Of a stretch of DNA of 64,000 nt, positions 15,076-50,952 are shown piece after piece (position 1 is the stretch's first letter; the number at the start of each line of letters is the position of its first letter). The position numbers and the translations under genes were made by a program. Source of the stretch: Candidatus Moraniibacteriota bacterium (lineage in GTDB: Bacteria > Patescibacteriota > Minisyncoccia > Moranbacterales > UBA1568). The notes under the pieces were generated by a model that saw only the letters and a list, made by a program, of their open reading frames with translations, was not told where the DNA came from and made no database searches. The stretch spans positions 143,637 to 207,636 of the forward strand of contig JAAXXG010000001.1 of assembly GCA_013334575.1 (NCBI GenBank), read 5' to 3'.

Positions 15076-15461
15076 AGTCTGTTCAACTGACTGATAAACG
15101 CGGCTCGGACCGGCGGACCGCCTTTGCCGTTTCTCTCCCTATTCTAGGATGTTTCAGCTCCAGCGGCAACCGGAATATCCGCAAACGGAACCTTGACATA
15201 TTCCTATAATTCATCATATCATAAAGGCAGTCGAATCTGATCCTGGCAACAGGGGGAGGGCGGCAATCGCAACCATATGACGCGGCTATCACGCCATATG
15301 ATACCTGCGACCGGCATTGGGATACCGCATCGCGAGATGATTCCCTCATCCGAGGGAAATCCGGTAGGCCGCTACTCCGGCTCATCGGAACCGATCGCGG
15401 CGATCGATAACTCGGTCGCCTCCGGCTCTCGAAGATGAGCCACGCCCCCTCTCAATGTAAA

Positions 15462-15543
15462 CGCCGCCACGAAGGGAGTATCCGATATCATGAACCCATG
15501 AGATCAGCATACTCTTCCTTCCGGCGGCGTTCTTTTATTTTCC
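15462..15543 (+). promoter_or_regulatory. Long imperfect hairpin (~26 bp of pairing, outer stem CGCCGCC/GGCGGCG) followed by a U-rich tract (TTCTTTTATTTT)
   Basis: Nested complementarity read directly: CGCCGCC...GAAGGGAGTAT...GATATCATG-aaccc-CATGAGATC...ATACTCTTCC...GGCGGCG then the T-run. It lies in the 585-bp divergent intergenic region, ~120 nt upstream of the 15661 start. Confidence 0.35.
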
Positions 15544-15660
15544 GAACCCACAAGCGAAAGAAATCCGGTGCCCTCCGCGTATCCCTATAGGACGCTTTCC
15601 GTTCATGGCACGTCGCTGTTATACTGAAAGCATCCGTCTGTCAGGTCGTACGCCGCAGCC

Positions 15661-16410
15661 ATGAAACATCCGCACATCTCCGTCGTTATCCCCTGCTACA
15701 AGGAGGCCGAGGTCATTGAGCGGAACACCCTTTCCGTCCATGGGTTTCTTTCATCGCGGTTCGAACGCTTCGAGATCGTCGTGGTGACCGACGGCAGTCC
15801 TGACGGCACCGCCGAAGTCATCGAACGCATGATCCTCGACCGACCGGAACTCGGACTCGTCCATATCCGTTTCGACACGAACCGTGGCAAGGGGGCCGCG
15901 GTGCGGGCCGGCATACTCGGGTCCCGCTACGATCCGGTCCTGTTCGCAGACGCGGATCTTACCATACCGATCGGAGAACTCGATGAGTTCATGTCCGCCA
16001 TCTCGCAGTCCGACCTGGCGATCGCATCGCGGCTCGCGCCGGGATCCCGCTTCGAGGAACCGGCCCCATGGTACCGCGTTCTCATGGCCCGCGGATTCCA
16101 TCTGCTGCAGATACTCATCCTCGGAAACTTCGAATTCTCCGATACGCAATGCGGCTTCAAGCTCCTTCGCCGAAGCGCCGCGCTCGACCTGTTCCGCGAC
16201 CTTACCGTGGACCGGTTCGCCTTCGACGCCGAACTCCTGTTTCTCGCCCGTCGCCGCGACTACCGCGTCGCCATCCTGCCGGTCACGGTGAAGCGCGACC
16301 CGCGCAATACGAACGTCCGCATCGTCCGCGACCCGCTCGAGATGCTCTTCTCCCTGCTCCGTATCCGGTGGAATTCCCTGACAGGAAAGTACGACCGCTC
16401 TGCCAATTGA
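15661..16410 (+). CDS. GT2 glycosyltransferase (dolichyl/polyprenyl-phosphate beta-glycosyltransferase-like)
   Basis: 'ISVVIPCYKEAEV...FEIVVVTDGSPDGT' with a DAD-type motif 'LFADADL'. No C-terminal TM. Confidence 0.8.
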   Translation: MKHPHISVVIPCYKEAEVIERNTLSVHGFLSSRFERFEIVVVTDGSPDGTAEVIERMILDRPELGLVHIRFDTNRGKGAAVRAGILGSRYDPVLFADADLTIPIGELDEFMSAISQSDLAIASRLAPGSRFEEPAPWYRVLMARGFHLLQILILGNFEFSDTQCGFKLLRRSAALDLFRDLTVDRFAFDAELLFLARRRDYRVAILPVTVKRDPRNTNVRIVRDPLEMLFSLLRIRWNSLTGKYDRSAN

Positions 16411-16450
16411 CGGCATCCGAACCTGTCCATCAGACCTTTCCATGAAAAAA

Positions 16451-16480
16451 GGCCGCGTTTTAAGACACGGCCTTTCATAC
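16451..16480. terminator. Weak bidirectional hairpin between convergent genes
   Basis: AAAAAA-GGCCG-(12 nt)-CGGCC-TTTCATACTTTT. The stem is short and the loop large. Confidence 0.3.
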
Positions 16481-16494
16481 TTTTCGCTTCGCGG

Positions 16495-16953
16495 TTATCG
16501 TTTGGAGCCGCTGTTCGCTTGCGCCTCACGATGCCGCTGAACATGTTTTTCCTCTTGCGATCGGATGGCTTTCCGACGGAGCTCACCCGCTTCACGTCTA
16601 TATTCTTCAGCCGTGAGCTCTTTCCAATCGCCGCTTTTTGGTTCCAAACGGATGAATCGGTCGGAGCCTGCGAGGAGGTATTTCTGAAAATTTTTAAGCT
16701 CCTTGCTACTCATTCGCGCTATGAACATCGTCGCGTCGACTTCGTTGGCACATACGCTCATACGCATTCGCCTGGATTTCTCGACGTCCCGTCCTGCGGA
16801 CGGAACGGCCTTCTCCCATTCCGAGAGGATGAAATCGAACATCGCAAGCACGAACGGAGCGCCTCCCCCCTTGTAGTCACTCCGGAAACGAACCCATCCC
16901 GAATCGGGACTTACTTCGATGGTAACAGCTATGATCCGGCTTTTTTCCTTCAT
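16495..16953 (-). CDS. Hypothetical protein with a basic C-terminal tail
   Basis: The tool ORF begins at a GTG. The likely ATG at ~16953 (MKEKSRIIAV) is preceded by GGGAG with a 5-nt spacing. GC is lower than the surroundings. No family recognised. Confidence 0.5.
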   Translation of the reverse strand: MKEKSRIIAVTIEVSPDSGWVRFRSDYKGGGAPFVLAMFDFILSEWEKAVPSAGRDVEKSRRMRMSVCANEVDATMFIARMSSKELKNFQKYLLAGSDRFIRLEPKSGDWKELTAEEYRREAGELRRKAIRSQEEKHVQRHREAQANSGSKR

Positions 16954-17102
16954 GGTCACTCCCTTTCCGGAACGCGTTCCGGCGTTTTGATTACTTGATA
17001 TTTTTCCTTAAGACACTGTAACGAACAAAAAACTATTATACATTGAAAGATTGATCGAGTCAAGTTCGATAACCGAAAGCAACCACCATAGACATTAAAT
17101 AT

Positions 17103-17129
17103 TGACTATTCTCATTAATAATGTATAAT
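17103..17129 (+). promoter_or_regulatory. Promoter candidate for the lipoprotein gene
   Basis: TTGACT (17103-08), 15-nt spacer, TG-TATAAT (17122-29) in an AT-rich stretch ~48 nt upstream of the ATG at 17177. Confidence 0.4.
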
Positions 17130-17176
17130 ATTTTTGTTCTTCCCTTCCTTCTTTACCAACTTCAACCGCAACGGTC

Positions 17177-17662
17177 ATGCGCAAACACCTGCTTACCCTC
17201 GCCCTTTCTCTTCTCATCATCGGTTGCACGAAGAACACCGACCACTCCCTGCCGGAACGCCCGCTCCAAAGCGTCGTGCTCCCCGCCGACGACTCACCTG
17301 TCACGGATACGGTTACCCCGTCCGGACCCGTCCACGCCTTCAGAGCGGAACAGGATCACTTCAACATACCGGTTATCGGTAGGACCTATAAATCCAATTC
17401 AGGAATGGTCTTCGAAGTGTTCTGCCCGACCCCGACATTCCTGTCCGAATCCGCGGCTATCGAAATACTTCGGAAGCAGTTTCGAAACGAAGGAACGGAT
17501 TTTAGTCATGTTGAAAGATATACGCTGGAATACTCTAAGATTCGGATACCATTCAGCGATGAAATGCTCAAGGATGTCGAGGGAGGAGTCCGCTACAGGA
17601 ATGCCGTCGTGATCCGCGTAATCATACCCCACGCCACGTCGGATATGATTACGAGAAAATGA
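17177..17662 (+). CDS. Putative lipoprotein
   Basis: Signal peptide plus a lipobox-like 'LLIIGC'. 161 aa. No family recognised. Confidence 0.55.
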   Translation: MRKHLLTLALSLLIIGCTKNTDHSLPERPLQSVVLPADDSPVTDTVTPSGPVHAFRAEQDHFNIPVIGRTYKSNSGMVFEVFCPTPTFLSESAAIEILRKQFRNEGTDFSHVERYTLEYSKIRIPFSDEMLKDVEGGVRYRNAVVIRVIIPHATSDMITRK

Positions 17663-17683
17663 CTTCTCGCGAACAAGAGAAAA

Positions 17684-17710
17684 CCCGGAGCCGCACAAGC
17701 GCGCTCCGGG
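17684..17710. terminator. Bidirectional intrinsic terminator
   Basis: CCCGGAGC-(11 nt)-GCTCCGGG, an 8-bp GC stem. A U-rich tract follows on the minus strand (TTTTCTCTTGTT) and a weaker T-rich run on the plus strand. Confidence 0.55.
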
Positions 17711-17739
17711 TATTCGTATTGGGAACCGATTCACTCCCG

Positions 17740-18630
17740 TTACCGCAGGTTCGCCGAAGAGAACTCTTCGAGTGTCATTCCGGTCACCTCGAGAAAATAC
17801 GTCGGCATACCGTCGGCGACGTCGCGGGCCGTATCAAACGGTATCTCTGCCGGCTGACCCTCCGCCTCCATCTTTCTGACCAAACCCTGTAGCGTCGAGG
17901 CCAGATTACGCTGCGGGCACCCGCTCTCGATCGACCCCGCAACGAAAACGATGGTATCGAACGGATTACCGATATCCGCGGAGAGATAAAGGGCGACGCC
18001 CTGTTCAAAGCCGCACGGCACCCGCATCGCGGCGATCTCCATATCGCGATCGCGATAGGCGTGCTGCAATACGGTGAACGCCGATGAGATCTCCCTCGCT
18101 ATCGACGGAGAGGGTTCCTCCGTAGCGATCCCATCCGGCATTCGTGTCAGGACGACCGGGTACGGCAACGACGAGAGAAAGCCCATCCCTTCCGGAAGCG
18201 TATCCGTTCCCGCCTCGTATTCCCCTTGTTTATAGCGTTCCCAGAGTTTTCCACCGAGACGGCATGTGACGCTCGAGGTCCATCGCGGTATCTGCAGACG
18301 CCGGCGTATGGACGCCGTTTGGGCGTACTGCTCGACGACGGCCGGATCGAGATATTTCTCCAGTCCTCGACGACCGTACGCGACGATATCGGTCTTGATG
18401 CCGGTCTCTTCGAGGACGTGATGGTGATATATGGAAAGCGCATGCATATATTCCGCCTTTCCCGGGATATCGACATGAGACCGCATTGGATGCAGGCATC
18501 TCAGTCCATCCGACTGGATGACGAGCACCAAGTCCGGATAATCATTCAACGAATAGACCTGATGATGCCCGTTGCTGCGAGAATGTTCCGCACCGTCGAT
18601 ATGGGGATGATGGGTACGACCGTTCATCAT
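17740..18630 (-). CDS. Hypothetical His-rich (probable metal-binding) protein
   Basis: The start was chosen at MMNGRTHHPHIDGAEH, preceded by a perfect SD (AAAGGAGG, 6 nt, ATG). The tool ORF extends 82 aa further upstream without support. His clusters 'HHPH', 'NGHH' and 'IYHHHVLEE' are present. No confident family. Confidence 0.55.
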   Translation of the reverse strand: MMNGRTHHPHIDGAEHSRSNGHHQVYSLNDYPDLVLVIQSDGLRCLHPMRSHVDIPGKAEYMHALSIYHHHVLEETGIKTDIVAYGRRGLEKYLDPAVVEQYAQTASIRRRLQIPRWTSSVTCRLGGKLWERYKQGEYEAGTDTLPEGMGFLSSLPYPVVLTRMPDGIATEEPSPSIAREISSAFTVLQHAYRDRDMEIAAMRVPCGFEQGVALYLSADIGNPFDTIVFVAGSIESGCPQRNLASTLQGLVRKMEAEGQPAEIPFDTARDVADGMPTYFLEVTGMTLEEFSSANLR

Positions 18631-18799
18631 GTCTGCCTCCTTTGCAGGTTTGATGGAAAAAGATGAGTGATGGATGGAAAGAACACGGCGGATACGGTAC
18701 GCCGATTCCGAAAAAATGTCAACGACGAACCGAAAAAAAAATAAGGCACCCCGTCGATCGTTCGGGGCGCCGATAGTTTTCGAAAGAACACGCGGGACA

Positions 18800-19483
18800 T
18801 CAGGACGCGGCAGCTGCGGCGCAGGTCGCGCACGATGCATGCCGATCTCCGGAACAGATTCTTCCGGTAATGTCATCGACCCTCATGCGATACCATGCGA
18901 CGGTCCTGCACGTCGGATTCGTGATGCCATCCACGAATCCGGACTCGCAAAGCCAGTGAATGACCGCATTGACGGTTTTCAGTCCGGTCATACTGCGAAG
19001 AGACCCGGCAAACTCATCATGTCCGACCATCAGAAGGCCGTCATCGTCCGGTTCGGACAAAGCAGCCTCACGCGGCCACCAGAGAAACAGTCGGAGCAGG
19101 AAACGCCTGACGAAGGCTTGATCCTCCCGCCAGTCGGGACCGAAATGCCCCACGACTTCCGGAACGTCTTCCCTCCGAACAAAAATCAGGGAAGACCTCC
19201 CGGCGGACCCCGACCCACCGCAGCAGCAGTGCCCACCGTTCCGGTCGCTCTCCAGAATGGATCGCGTCAGGTCGGCATGCAACGTCGGCGAGACGGCGTT
19301 TCCGCTTGTGGGAACGAGATAGACGGGATAGGCGACCGGATAGCCGCTTACCACGACCGAGAACCGGAGCGCCATATCCGTCTTGGCCGGCTGCCGTGAG
19401 GACAACGTACAGACGCCGCCCAAGACCTCGTGATGAACAAGGAGACATCTGACCGCTCCACGGATGATGCCGAGGGGCGACAT
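18800..19483 (-). CDS. Hypothetical Cys/His-rich protein (motif GGHCCCGGSGS)
   Basis: Start at MSPLGIIRG (or MTRRGDMSPL, 7 codons earlier). Upstream of the His-rich protein on the same strand. GC3-rich codon usage supports a coding region. No family recognised. Confidence 0.45.
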   Translation of the reverse strand: MSPLGIIRGAVRCLLVHHEVLGGVCTLSSRQPAKTDMALRFSVVVSGYPVAYPVYLVPTSGNAVSPTLHADLTRSILESDRNGGHCCCGGSGSAGRSSLIFVRREDVPEVVGHFGPDWREDQAFVRRFLLRLFLWWPREAALSEPDDDGLLMVGHDEFAGSLRSMTGLKTVNAVIHWLCESGFVDGITNPTCRTVAWYRMRVDDITGRICSGDRHASCATCAAAAAS

Positions 19484-19668
19484 GTCGCCCCGACGTGTCA
19501 TACACGTAACAACAACCATGATACTAATGTTGAAGATTTGAAACGAACAAGAGAACAGACTCCGGGACATCCGAAGCCCGTTTATGATAAACCATTCTAT
19601 CCCATGCGTCAATATTCGATTCGCCCTCTACATAAACCAAATCGCCGAAAAATGACTGAAACTGGCAC

Positions 19669-19697
19669 TTGACAGAAATTATATAAGGGTGTATACT
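19669..19697 (+). promoter_or_regulatory. Near-consensus sigma70 promoter (TTGACA, 17 nt, TATACT)
   Basis: TTGACA at 19669-74, an exactly 17-nt spacer, TATACT at 19692-97, in an AT-rich intergenic region. Confidence 0.5.
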
Positions 19698-19703
19698 TTT
19701 TGT

Positions 19704-19773
19704 AGGTGTGTGTTCTTTCTTCGGATGGTTGTGTTGGGATGGGTGTCGCTCTCGCAGTGACACCCGTTTTTTT
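19704..19773 (+). ncRNA. Candidate ~70-nt small RNA (promoter to intrinsic terminator, no ORF)
   Basis: Predicted TSS ~19704. The transcript ends in the terminator GGGTGTC-(11 nt)-GACACCC plus 7 Ts. No start-competent ORF fits. The nearest protein-coding genes are both on the opposite strand. Confidence 0.4.
19741..19773 (+). terminator. Rho-independent terminator
   Basis: 7-bp perfect stem GGGTGTC/GACACCC with an 11-nt loop, followed by TTTTTTT. Confidence 0.7.
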
Positions 19774-19874
19774 ATGAAAACGTCCCCATCCGCGTACTCC
19801 GCCGTACACGGCCCATCATCCGACCCTCGGCATCCGTCCGAAACGGAAAGCCCGCCAAGTACCCCCCAACCGAT

Positions 19875-21281
19875 TTATTCCTCCTTCCGGACATACAGAT
19901 CCGGGAATACCGATGACTTCGAATAGTGTTCCGCAATGCTCGGGTTCTTCACCTTCACGAACGAGCTCGAGACGACCTTCGGCCGCTTCTCGTCGATCAG
20001 TCCGTAGATATCGTAATCATAGGGTCGGACAAGGCGATAGGAAGACAGGATGCCCGTCTTCGGTTTCACGGAAAACCAGAAATAGTCGACATCCCTTCGG
20101 AACAGGTTGAACTGTGCGTCACCGTCGTAGACAAGGTCGTCCGGTCCGGTCACGGAAAGGACGTATGACACCTTGTCGAGTTGTCCCCGGTTATCCTCCC
20201 ACAAATCGAAGAAGAAATATCCGGCGACCGGCAGAGATGCGAGCAGCATCACGGCGACAAACCGACGGTTCAGTCGCCGAGAACGGACGAGCGCCGCGGC
20301 CGCGACCATCGCTATCCACGGCATCGCGGCAAGGTAGTACTGCGGAAATGGCGTCCTGGTCACGAAGACGGTCGCCAGAAGTCCCGCCGCGAAAAACAGC
20401 GCGATATCCGGCTTCCGATTTCGGACGGCATGGACCGAACCGAACAGGAACAGGATCCACAGAAGCGGATTCTGCTCGATTGACCGAAGCAGGTACTTGT
20501 AGATCGGAAACGAATTGAGCAGGAGGGTGTTCAGCTGCCAGTTCGAAAAGAAATATTCCCGCCAGCCGAACGCCGAGGAAACGTACGCGACGAATCCCAA
20601 GAGAAGGATTACGAACGTTCCCGCGTAGAAGAGAATGTCACGCCACGCTGTCTTGCGCTTCCACAGACGGTACAGCAGCAGGAGGCCGATCAGGAACGCC
20701 GCGAATACCGCCTTCTGCAGGAACAGGAACGCCGCGAACAACGCGGCCGAACTCCCAACGAGCTTCGCGGCGGACGGCGTCCGAAAATGAGAAAGAAGCA
20801 ACGAGACCGAAATGAGTTCGAACAGGACGAGCGGAATATCCGGACGGACCTCGATTACCTTGGTCAGAAAGGTGACCGACGTCGTCAGGAAGAAGACCGA
20901 AAAGAGCGCCGTCTCACGGTCAAAGAGGGAACGCGCGATCCGATATGTCAGCAGGACGATGCCGACTGTTGCCGCAAGCGACAGGAGCCGCGCCACGATG
21001 ACGGCCGGAATGCCGGGACCGAACAGAGCGATCACCGGCGCAAGCACGTAATACGGCAAAAAATGATGCGTCTGGAGGAAATCGACGTATATCCGCTCCC
21101 CGGAAAGTATCTTCCAGGCGGAATGGATCGCCTCGAACTCGTCATGATTGAAGGCATGAAACAGTGATGATGCCACCCCCAGCAGTCCGAAAACGACGAT
21201 ACCGAATACGGCGACCGCCTTCGGTCCGTCCATTTTCCCTAATTCCATCCGAAATGGTTTCATAGGCCCGACATTCTTCAT
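19875..21281 (-). CDS. GT-C fold membrane glycosyltransferase (ArnT-like)
   Basis: 468 aa, polytopic. 'HAFNHDEFEA' is the loop-1 DE motif of ArnT/PMT-type transferases. Confidence 0.75.
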   Translation of the reverse strand: MKNVGPMKPFRMELGKMDGPKAVAVFGIVVFGLLGVASSLFHAFNHDEFEAIHSAWKILSGERIYVDFLQTHHFLPYYVLAPVIALFGPGIPAVIVARLLSLAATVGIVLLTYRIARSLFDRETALFSVFFLTTSVTFLTKVIEVRPDIPLVLFELISVSLLLSHFRTPSAAKLVGSSAALFAAFLFLQKAVFAAFLIGLLLLYRLWKRKTAWRDILFYAGTFVILLLGFVAYVSSAFGWREYFFSNWQLNTLLLNSFPIYKYLLRSIEQNPLLWILFLFGSVHAVRNRKPDIALFFAAGLLATVFVTRTPFPQYYLAAMPWIAMVAAAALVRSRRLNRRFVAVMLLASLPVAGYFFFDLWEDNRGQLDKVSYVLSVTGPDDLVYDGDAQFNLFRRDVDYFWFSVKPKTGILSSYRLVRPYDYDIYGLIDEKRPKVVSSSFVKVKNPSIAEHYSKSSVFPDLYVRKEE

Positions 21282-47289: not shown

Positions 47290-47452
47290 GAAATACCTCC
47301 TGATTGATTGTATTGCTTCGATGAAAAGAACAGGAAGAACCCGAAGAGTATACCTTACGACAGGCTCCGGGTCAATACGGAAAGGAATAACGGAACAATT
47401 CGGGACGATAATCCGGTCCTGAGACCCCGAAAGACGAATGAAAAACGGATCG

Positions 47453-50569: not shown

Positions 50570-50602
50570 ACCGTATTGGGAGGAAATTCGCGTCCTCGCG
50601 TT

Positions 50603-50952
50603 CCCGAGACGGGCTCGTAAGCCGGATTCTGTTCAAACCATCATTTGTCTGGGACCGCCGTTACCGGCGGACTCGAGCGGCACTCCCAGGATCGCTCCCG
50701 GGCACGGCCTTGCACACGGGTAAGGATTTAGCCGTTTCACCCCGCACGTCACCGTGCGGACTCGCCCGACTCCTTACGGGGCCGGGCGCCTCGTCCTTTC
50801 GGACGAAGGCGTCTCTGTTCGCACCTCGCGCCTCGCGGCGGACGGGCGTTACCCGCTACCTGTTCCCCGGGGATCGCTCCCCGGATCGTGTGTCCGGACT
50901 TTCCTCCCCGGCTACCCAAGAGGGCGCCGAGGCGATGGTCCGGCCCGTTTCA
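50603..50952 (-). ncRNA. rnpB: RNase P RNA, bacterial type A
   Basis: The minus strand carries GAGGAAAGUCCGGAC (CR-I), GGUAACGCC (CR-II), GGGGUGAAACGG (CR-III), AGACAAAUGAUGG and ACAGAAUCCGGCUUA (CR-V). The P1 stem is ACGGGC/GCCCGU. Ends are approximate to ±10 nt. Confidence 0.9.

Follow-up and report, generated by a model that had tools for sequence, protein, structure and literature searches.

The question raised by this locus is whether the short intergenic stretch at 19669-19773, read on the plus strand, is a gene for a small RNA, as the initial annotation of the DNA had proposed. Next to nothing is known of regulatory small RNAs in the Candidate Phyla Radiation (CPR). For TM7x there are "no currently validated small RNAs" (bioRxiv 10.1101/2022.03.25.485537), and our literature search found no paper on the small RNAs of Patescibacteria. 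The sequence analysed here, referred to as the window, is a 64-kb stretch of a Candidatus Moranbacteria MAG (CPR/Patescibacteria). The candidate in it is sharply delimited, carries consensus signals and has the same putative regulator gene alongside it in two lineages. If it is real, these reduced genomes would be shown to keep spending on riboregulation, and a small ORFan-gene island would gain its first point of access; by itself it is a further orphan small RNA candidate that leaves the general picture as it was. The reading that we favour, tentatively and at slightly short of an even chance, is that of a functional, lineage-restricted and independently transcribed small non-coding RNA of ~66-70 nt, as suggested by the features described below.

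Genomic setting

The GC content of the source genome is ~58% and its intergenic pockets are AT-rich. The spacer containing the RNA unit, with a GC fraction of 0.39-0.45 compared with ~0.58-0.62 in its flanks, is such a pocket, in keeping with its first description. It is bounded on the left by a lineage-restricted gene for a 227-aa protein with a possible C-terminal winged-helix domain (18800-19483, minus strand) and on the right by a GT39/PMT_2 glycosyltransferase gene (19875-21281, minus strand) that is identical to HGB18_00770; further ORFs near the RNA unit are exact matches to HGB18_00750, 00755 and 00760. The unit lies, as had been stated, on the strand opposite to both neighbors, divergent from the 227-aa gene and convergent with the GT39 gene, and no gene follows it on the plus strand, where the convergent GT39 gene comes next. 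No tRNA or tmRNA was found in the 64-kb window by ARAGORN.

Promoter and terminator

The predicted promoter consists of a -35 hexamer TTGACA (19669-19674, plus strand), which is identical in the related sequences L003, L004 and L005, and a -10 hexamer TATACT (19692-19697, plus strand) at a spacing of 17 nt, which reads TATAAT in the 99%-identical MAG L003. The consensus promoter that had been reported is therefore present at 19669-19697, with TTGACA-17-TATACT agreeing at 11/12 consensus positions in the window and at 12/12 in L003. Matches at 11-12/12 positions occur at six sites in the 64 kb (both strands), whereas 0.17 are expected from first-order Markov simulations of the window, so that such sites are ~35 times commoner than the simulated expectation. 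Among the other sites, 17102 (plus) directly precedes a gene for a 161-aa lipoprotein, 17063 (minus) precedes the gene for a 152-aa protein, and 42050 (minus) is the third that lies directly upstream of an annotated gene. Given these consensus promoters in front of annotated genes, sigma-70-type promoters of this kind are evidently used in this genome, and the RNA unit has by its sequence the TTGACA/TATAAT-type hexamers and the 16-18 nt spacer that define them. We know of no experimental characterisation of CPR promoters.

Three of the few substitutions between the window and L003 (19685-19702) fall in the promoter spacer, the -10 hexamer and the bases leading up to the start site; over the next ~160 nt downstream the two do not differ.

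The terminator hairpin, located by folding and by a hairpin scan, has a 10-bp stem GGGTGTCGCT/AGTGACACCC with the loop CTCGC (19741-19765, plus strand) and starts ~43 nt downstream of the -10 hexamer. Written as RNA, the core stem is GGGUGUCGCU/AGUGACACCC (19741-19765), closed by the loop CUCGC and extendable to 13 bp, and it is followed by a G at 19766 and a T7 tract (19767-19773, plus strand), after which comes ATGA as in the relative L006. The U7 of the initial annotation is thus correct, whereas its 7-bp GC stem is the core of the 10-bp stem, extendable to 13 bp. The minimum free energy of 19704-19773 is -21 kcal/mol with a single hairpin, the hairpin itself amounting to about -18 to -21 kcal/mol. 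A simple terminator scan overlooked 19741-19773; a dedicated hairpin/T-run scan placed it sixth among 95 hairpin plus T-run sites in the 64-kb window (both strands), and 12 such sites in the window have a dG no higher than -15 kcal/mol. For any given site, the probability of having one of these 12 in the 100 nt downstream on its own strand is ~0.01. Read on the minus strand, the hairpin has no U tract behind it; the terminator is therefore one-directional, for which reason a bidirectional terminator serving the GT39 gene was ruled out. A GC-rich stem-loop followed by U7, strand-specific, is what characterizes a Rho-independent terminator, and the unit is one of these as far as its sequence goes; the 152-aa gene at 16450 ends in an intrinsic terminator of similar kind.

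Judged from the sequence, promoter and terminator form a real unit that chance is unlikely to have produced. It is very improbable that these are non-functional signals, motifs co-occurring by accident in an AT-rich spacer with no meaningful transcription. AT-rich spacers do inflate promoter-like matches, and the lack of experimentally characterised CPR promoters leaves some room for such a reading. Against it stand the ~35-fold excess of 11-12/12 sites, which precede real genes, the ~0.01 probability of the joint occurrence with a top-ranked terminator, and the retention of the hairpin and T7 in L006.

The transcript predicted from the promoter geometry spans ~66-70 nt (19704-19773, plus strand). 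Its start would be A19704 or G19705, 7-8 nt past the -10 hexamer, and its 3' end would fall inside the T7 tract. RNA polymerase would accordingly start near A19704 and stop in the U7 tract, and the product would consist of an unstructured G/U- and C/U-rich 5' half of ~36 nt and the 3' terminator hairpin. The 5' G/U-rich region AGGUGUGUGUUCUUUCUUCGGAUGGUUGUGUUGGGAU (19704-19740, plus strand) is unpaired in the centroid structure, is partly alignable with L006 at GUAUGUUCUGUUGUG, and may be the region of interaction. The fold of 19704-19773 shows no evident anti-terminator alternative.

Coding potential

The frame 19708-19926 has 72 codons with a GTG start, lacks a Shine-Dalgarno sequence and reads through the hairpin, the last two points in agreement with the initial annotation. 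It has no match in Pfam, PHROG or NCBIfam and is absent from a collection of 15 billion proteins. A second frame of 23 codons extends from GTG19706 to TGA19777 (MCVLSSDGCVGMGVALAVTPVFL). Comparison of the window with L006 in three frames revealed no conserved peptide except for an ending forced by TTTTTTTATGA, and the earlier statement that the ~70-nt transcript holds no plausible ORF is supported by this absence of frame conservation.

That either frame encodes a very small protein is barely credible. The frames are open and the 23-aa peptide is hydrophobic, but neither is preceded by a Shine-Dalgarno sequence at the proper distance, both cross the terminator stem, and, the forced ending aside, the window and L006 share no conserved peptide in any of the frames; the 72-aa ORF is moreover the one missing from the large protein collection. 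A type I toxin-antitoxin system was also considered and rejected, since no small ORF is kept from the window to L006 and a ribosome-binding site is missing.

Known RNA families and target search

The window was searched in full with Rfam 15 (4227 models) at gathering thresholds, as had been proposed, and no family matched at the RNA unit. In a permissive scan of 19450-19950 (501 nt) the best match was RF01485 rli61 of Listeria, with 22.7 bits against a threshold of 50. The rli61 RNA resembles the unit in being ~100 nt long with a GC-rich hairpin and U tract at the end, but the match has an E value of 0.09, its alignment extends into promoter DNA, and non-canonical pairs abound in its 5' helix. 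RF02274 AniS of Neisseria has the same ~100-nt layout ending in a hairpin and U tract and scored 16.7 bits against a threshold of 50 (E = 3.1). Membership in either family was rejected, both being sub-threshold, generic terminator matches. The L006 counterpart gave nothing above 20 bits in Rfam. The candidate RNA is outside every described family.

The sole Rfam match in the 64 kb is a bacterial type A RNase P RNA (50602-50951, minus strand), which scored 102.3 bits against a gathering score of 100 and in which several helices are deleted or divergent.

Target prediction against the flanking 5' UTRs, suggested at the outset, was carried out with RNAduplex and extended to the 64 kb of genome in the window, and no excess over shuffled controls was obtained. 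For the flanking 5' UTRs the p values exceeded 0.1 with no gain over shuffles, and the best non-self duplex in the window, at -44.2 kcal/mol, is inside the shuffled-seed range of -35.7 to -44.9 kcal/mol. One L006 target pair reached p = 0.013 among 10 tests.

An unstructured 5' seed followed by a 3' terminator hairpin is the usual layout of a trans-acting bacterial small RNA. The candidate is like the small RNAs with Rho-independent terminators in its ~36-nt single-stranded 5' region, its hairpin with U7 and its length of ~70 nt; it differs from them in an unusually G/U-rich seed, in pairing that does not exceed shuffles and in having a CPR host. In our preferred reading as a small RNA, the unpaired 5' half would bind a partner, either mRNAs via imperfect pairing or an RNA-binding protein. 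To our knowledge Hfq is not known from CPR genomes. The proposal of a small RNA gene is thus plausible and supported in part, by the promoter-terminator unit, the lack of a credible ORF and of an Rfam match, and the syntenic retention described below.

Conservation in relatives

The transcribed part is 100% identical in L003 (HGA38) and in the Logan contigs L004 and L005. Since the L003 genome is ~99% identical overall, this identity of the RNA body is uninformative. The informative relative is L006 (HGA33), where the spacer upstream of a gene for a 231-aa protein contains TTAACA-15-CATACT or TTTTAA-17-CATACT, a weak promoter that was not reported by the promoter scan. After the -10 hexamer come the G/U-rich stretch GAGUGGUAUGUUCUGUUGUGCGUUCA, a hairpin GGCAUCACC/GGUGGCGCC, U7 and AUGA, at the same position and on the same strand as the unit in the window. 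The two stems, which are only two distinct sequences, differ in three pairs by compensatory changes on both sides, in two pairs by a compatible change on one side, and in one further pair that is broken. A 13-nt segment of the window RNA, UUUCUUCGGAUGG, is absent from L006, and the fold of the L006 RNA is no better than that of shuffled sequences (z = -0.41).

With the window sequence as its only input, a covariance model was run over 131 kb on both strands. Its best non-self match was the syntenic spacer of L006, with 9.5 bits and an E value of 1.5 for the whole search, which by our own calculation becomes ~0.002 if scaled to the 350-nt syntenic spacer only. Of the conservation and covariation that had been put forward as a check, the former is seen in one informative relative, where the hairpin is kept, while the latter comes down to two distinct sequences and yields no statistics. 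No paralogs of the RNA unit were found by blastn-short and the covariance model in the window and five loci. GTDB species genomes contain 34 matches to a degenerate DNA pattern made from the blocks common to the window and L006, none of them in Patescibacteria; because they occur in unrelated taxa (mainly Bacilli, Bacteroidota, Clostridia and Methanosarcinales), they were treated as chance matches.

The surroundings of the unit are informative as to what it is linked with. In L006 the gene downstream is co-directional, encodes 483 aa, starts 77 nt after the unit and has no homologue in the window; read from the sequence, it has an extended -10 promoter-like site of its own, TGATATACT, after the terminator. 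In the GT39 relatives (54-59% identity; L001 and L008-L014), GT2 genes directly follow the GT39 gene, and both the 227-aa gene and the RNA unit are missing. Relatives of GT39 that lack the 227-aa gene thus also lack the RNA unit, from which it follows that the unit is linked to the 227-aa gene and not to GT39, and on this sequence comparison it travels with the divergent 227-aa gene. The label "orphan" hence holds with respect to the databases and not with respect to the locus, where the unit is consistently paired with this gene. The retention of the unit beside a 227-aa gene at 51% identity, while the other flank differs, was counted in favor of an independent RNA gene. A riboswitch or attenuator leader was rejected, as the next gene in the window is convergent and the L006 gene has the promoter-like site just described.

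The same surroundings bear on two alternatives. The first, which is the main rival and is possible though doubtful, is that the unit is a relic or an insulator, that is, the promoter and leader of a lost gene or a stopped divergent promoter protecting GT39, with a functionless RNA as its product. This would fit the co-directional 483-aa gene that follows the L006 unit and is missing from the window, the presence in the 5' part of the KTGTTCTTTC/TGTTC element found downstream of ordinary mRNA promoters (see below), and the null result of the target search. It is opposed by the intact hairpin and T7 in two lineages in which the downstream genes differ both in identity and in direction, so that the unit is not tied to its downstream gene; by the promoter-like site that the 483-aa gene has of its own; and by promoters of 11/12 in the window and 12/12 in L003, which do not look like decay.

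The second alternative, a distinctly improbable one, is a cis-antisense or convergent device acting on GT39, either through complementarity of the RNA to the GT39 3' UTR or through polymerase collision. The GT39 mRNA, having no canonical terminator, may run through 19773-19704: no U tract follows the hairpin on this strand, the GT39 3' region contains several hairpins and no clear terminator before the RNA gene, and nothing terminator-like is seen on the minus strand until 19582-19554. However, the downstream gene in L006 is co-directional and unrelated, and the GT39 relatives elsewhere do not have the unit. Even when pooled, the antisense, chance and peptide readings are unlikely to account for the locus.

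The divergent 227-aa gene and its signals

Proper annotation of the 227-aa gene is confirmed by P0127, a 231-aa protein of L006 that is 51% identical to it over the full length, which makes 18800-19483 (minus strand) a real gene. An exhaustive HMMER search over 1.84 billion representatives added one further relative of the 227-aa protein, P0128, encoded on a 1.7-kb contig with a co-directional upstream gene 70 nt away. A word-based search returned P0127 only, and scans of genome, metagenome and viral contigs gave no true relative. Neither the 227-aa protein nor the 296-aa protein encoded beyond it has a match in Pfam, PHROGs, NCBIfam, PADLOC or the PDB sequences. The AF2 model of the 227-aa protein has a mean pLDDT of 46, with residues 150-210 at 70-79 in an H-H-beta-beta topology, and the top Foldseek matches of the model are the winged helices of MarR, SarX and ScpB, none of them significant (E > 0.2). 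A winged-helix DNA-binding protein is a possible assignment on the basis of this model and is taken here as a lead only.

The promoter of the 227-aa gene is TTGACG-17-TATCAT (19584-19612, minus strand), with TTGACA-17-TAATAT as its counterpart in L006. This promoter and that of the RNA face away from each other, their -35 hexamers being 56 nt apart. The 5' end of the 227-aa mRNA forms a conserved stem-loop (19554-19582, minus strand) followed by UGUUCUCUUGUUCG; the corresponding stem-loop in L006 is GCTTCGGACTGTCCGGAGC, followed by TGTTC.

Centered on the ATG start of the 227-aa gene is a perfect 18-nt palindrome, GGGGCGACATGTCGCCCC (19474-19491). The L006 hairpin at this place, TGCGTCAAACAGACGCG, is a different one; it takes in the second and third bases of the start codon and continues downstream. 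The palindrome could serve in start-codon sequestration or as an operator.

Divergent pairs of a regulator gene and a small RNA gene are familiar from enterobacteria, where sgrR/sgrS, oxyR/oxyS and gcvA/gcvB are of this type. As in these pairs, a terminator-ended RNA gene stands here back to back with a gene for a DNA-binding protein (in this case a putative one), the two share one AT-rich control region, and the linkage to the partner is kept while the other flank changes. There is no relation in sequence or family, and none of the Pfam or NCBIfam families, LysR among them, is matched by the 227-aa protein. Control of the candidate RNA's transcription would lie in the promoter region that the two divergent genes share and might be exerted by the 227-aa putative winged-helix protein; such regulation is purely inferential and is drawn by analogy with the enterobacterial pairs.

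On the 3' side of the 227-aa stop codon there is a hairpin followed by TTAT9 (18771-18733), and then a promoter-like site TTGACA-17-TACCGT (18722-18694). The genes at 18800-19483 and 17740-18630 had been regarded as an operon. With a terminator-like hairpin and a promoter-like site lying between them, the 296-aa gene is probably a separate unit and the presumed operon probably comprises two transcription units. The 296-aa gene (HGB18_00760) has a 316-aa counterpart in L003 with only 30% protein identity, whereas the flanks are 99% identical; the window segment 17710-18733 could not be aligned by blastn with L003 10534-11828, and the gene is missing in L006. By these sequence comparisons it is a hyper-divergent, replaceable cassette without a Pfam or PADLOC match.

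A possible leader element shared with mRNAs

The 5' part of the candidate RNA includes the motif GTGTTCTTTC (19710-19719, plus strand), one of three exact copies in the 64 kb. The others are at 18782-18791 and 18677-18686, both on the minus strand, and all three are within ~1 kb (18677-19719). A TGTTC(T/G) core occurs no more than 40 nt downstream of 5 of the 13 strong promoters, compared with a background of 4.7%, and always along the direction of transcription. Such cores are located at 17135 (plus), 17027, 19557 and 47332 (all minus), and one of the five promoters with a core belongs to an ordinary mRNA at 47375 (minus strand). In L006 the core follows two of the five scanned promoters as well as the weak RNA promoter. 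From this distribution, this genome may be using the TGTTC core as a leader or operator element. The 5' half of the RNA resembles the C/U-rich, UGUUCU-bearing 5' UTRs of mRNAs, which fits a leader relic, a shared operator or leader element, or a decoy, and a leader-like 5' part weakens the small RNA reading.

The last of these, a rather improbable reading, takes the RNA as a 5'-UTR mimic or decoy in which the GUGUUCUUUC element within the first ~20 nt titrates a factor that recognizes leaders. The same element is present at the predicted 5' ends of the 296-aa gene, the 161-aa gene and the 227-aa leader. Such a factor would be either a protein that binds RNA or, by way of the DNA, the winged-helix-like 227-aa protein encoded next door. 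If this were so, the RNA would coordinate an island of strongly promoted, lineage-specific ORFan genes, including the hyper-divergent cassette, and a CPR bacterium would possess the logic of a CsrB-like sponge with an unrelated motif and protein.

The possible island around the unit

Four of the six promoter sites at 11-12/12 in the window fall in the 4.8-kb stretch 15076-19874. This stretch contains lineage-restricted ORFans of 152, 161, 296 and 227 aa and is situated between glycosyltransferase genes; by its sequence it may be an inserted island. No relatives were found for the 152-aa protein. A diversity-generating or mobile-element reading of the island (DGR/mobile element) was rejected on finding no long direct or inverted repeats.

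Within the same stretch, in the segment 15193-15545, a strong promoter TTGACA-18-TATCAT (11/12) precedes ~330 nt that hold no convincing ORF. The segment had no Rfam match, and L006 conserves it in patches only. A long-range hairpin is formed by AACGCCGCC (15459-15467) and GGCGGCGTT (15524-15532), followed by CTTTTATTTT, before the GT2 gene at 15661. The segment could give rise to a long leader or to another non-coding transcript.
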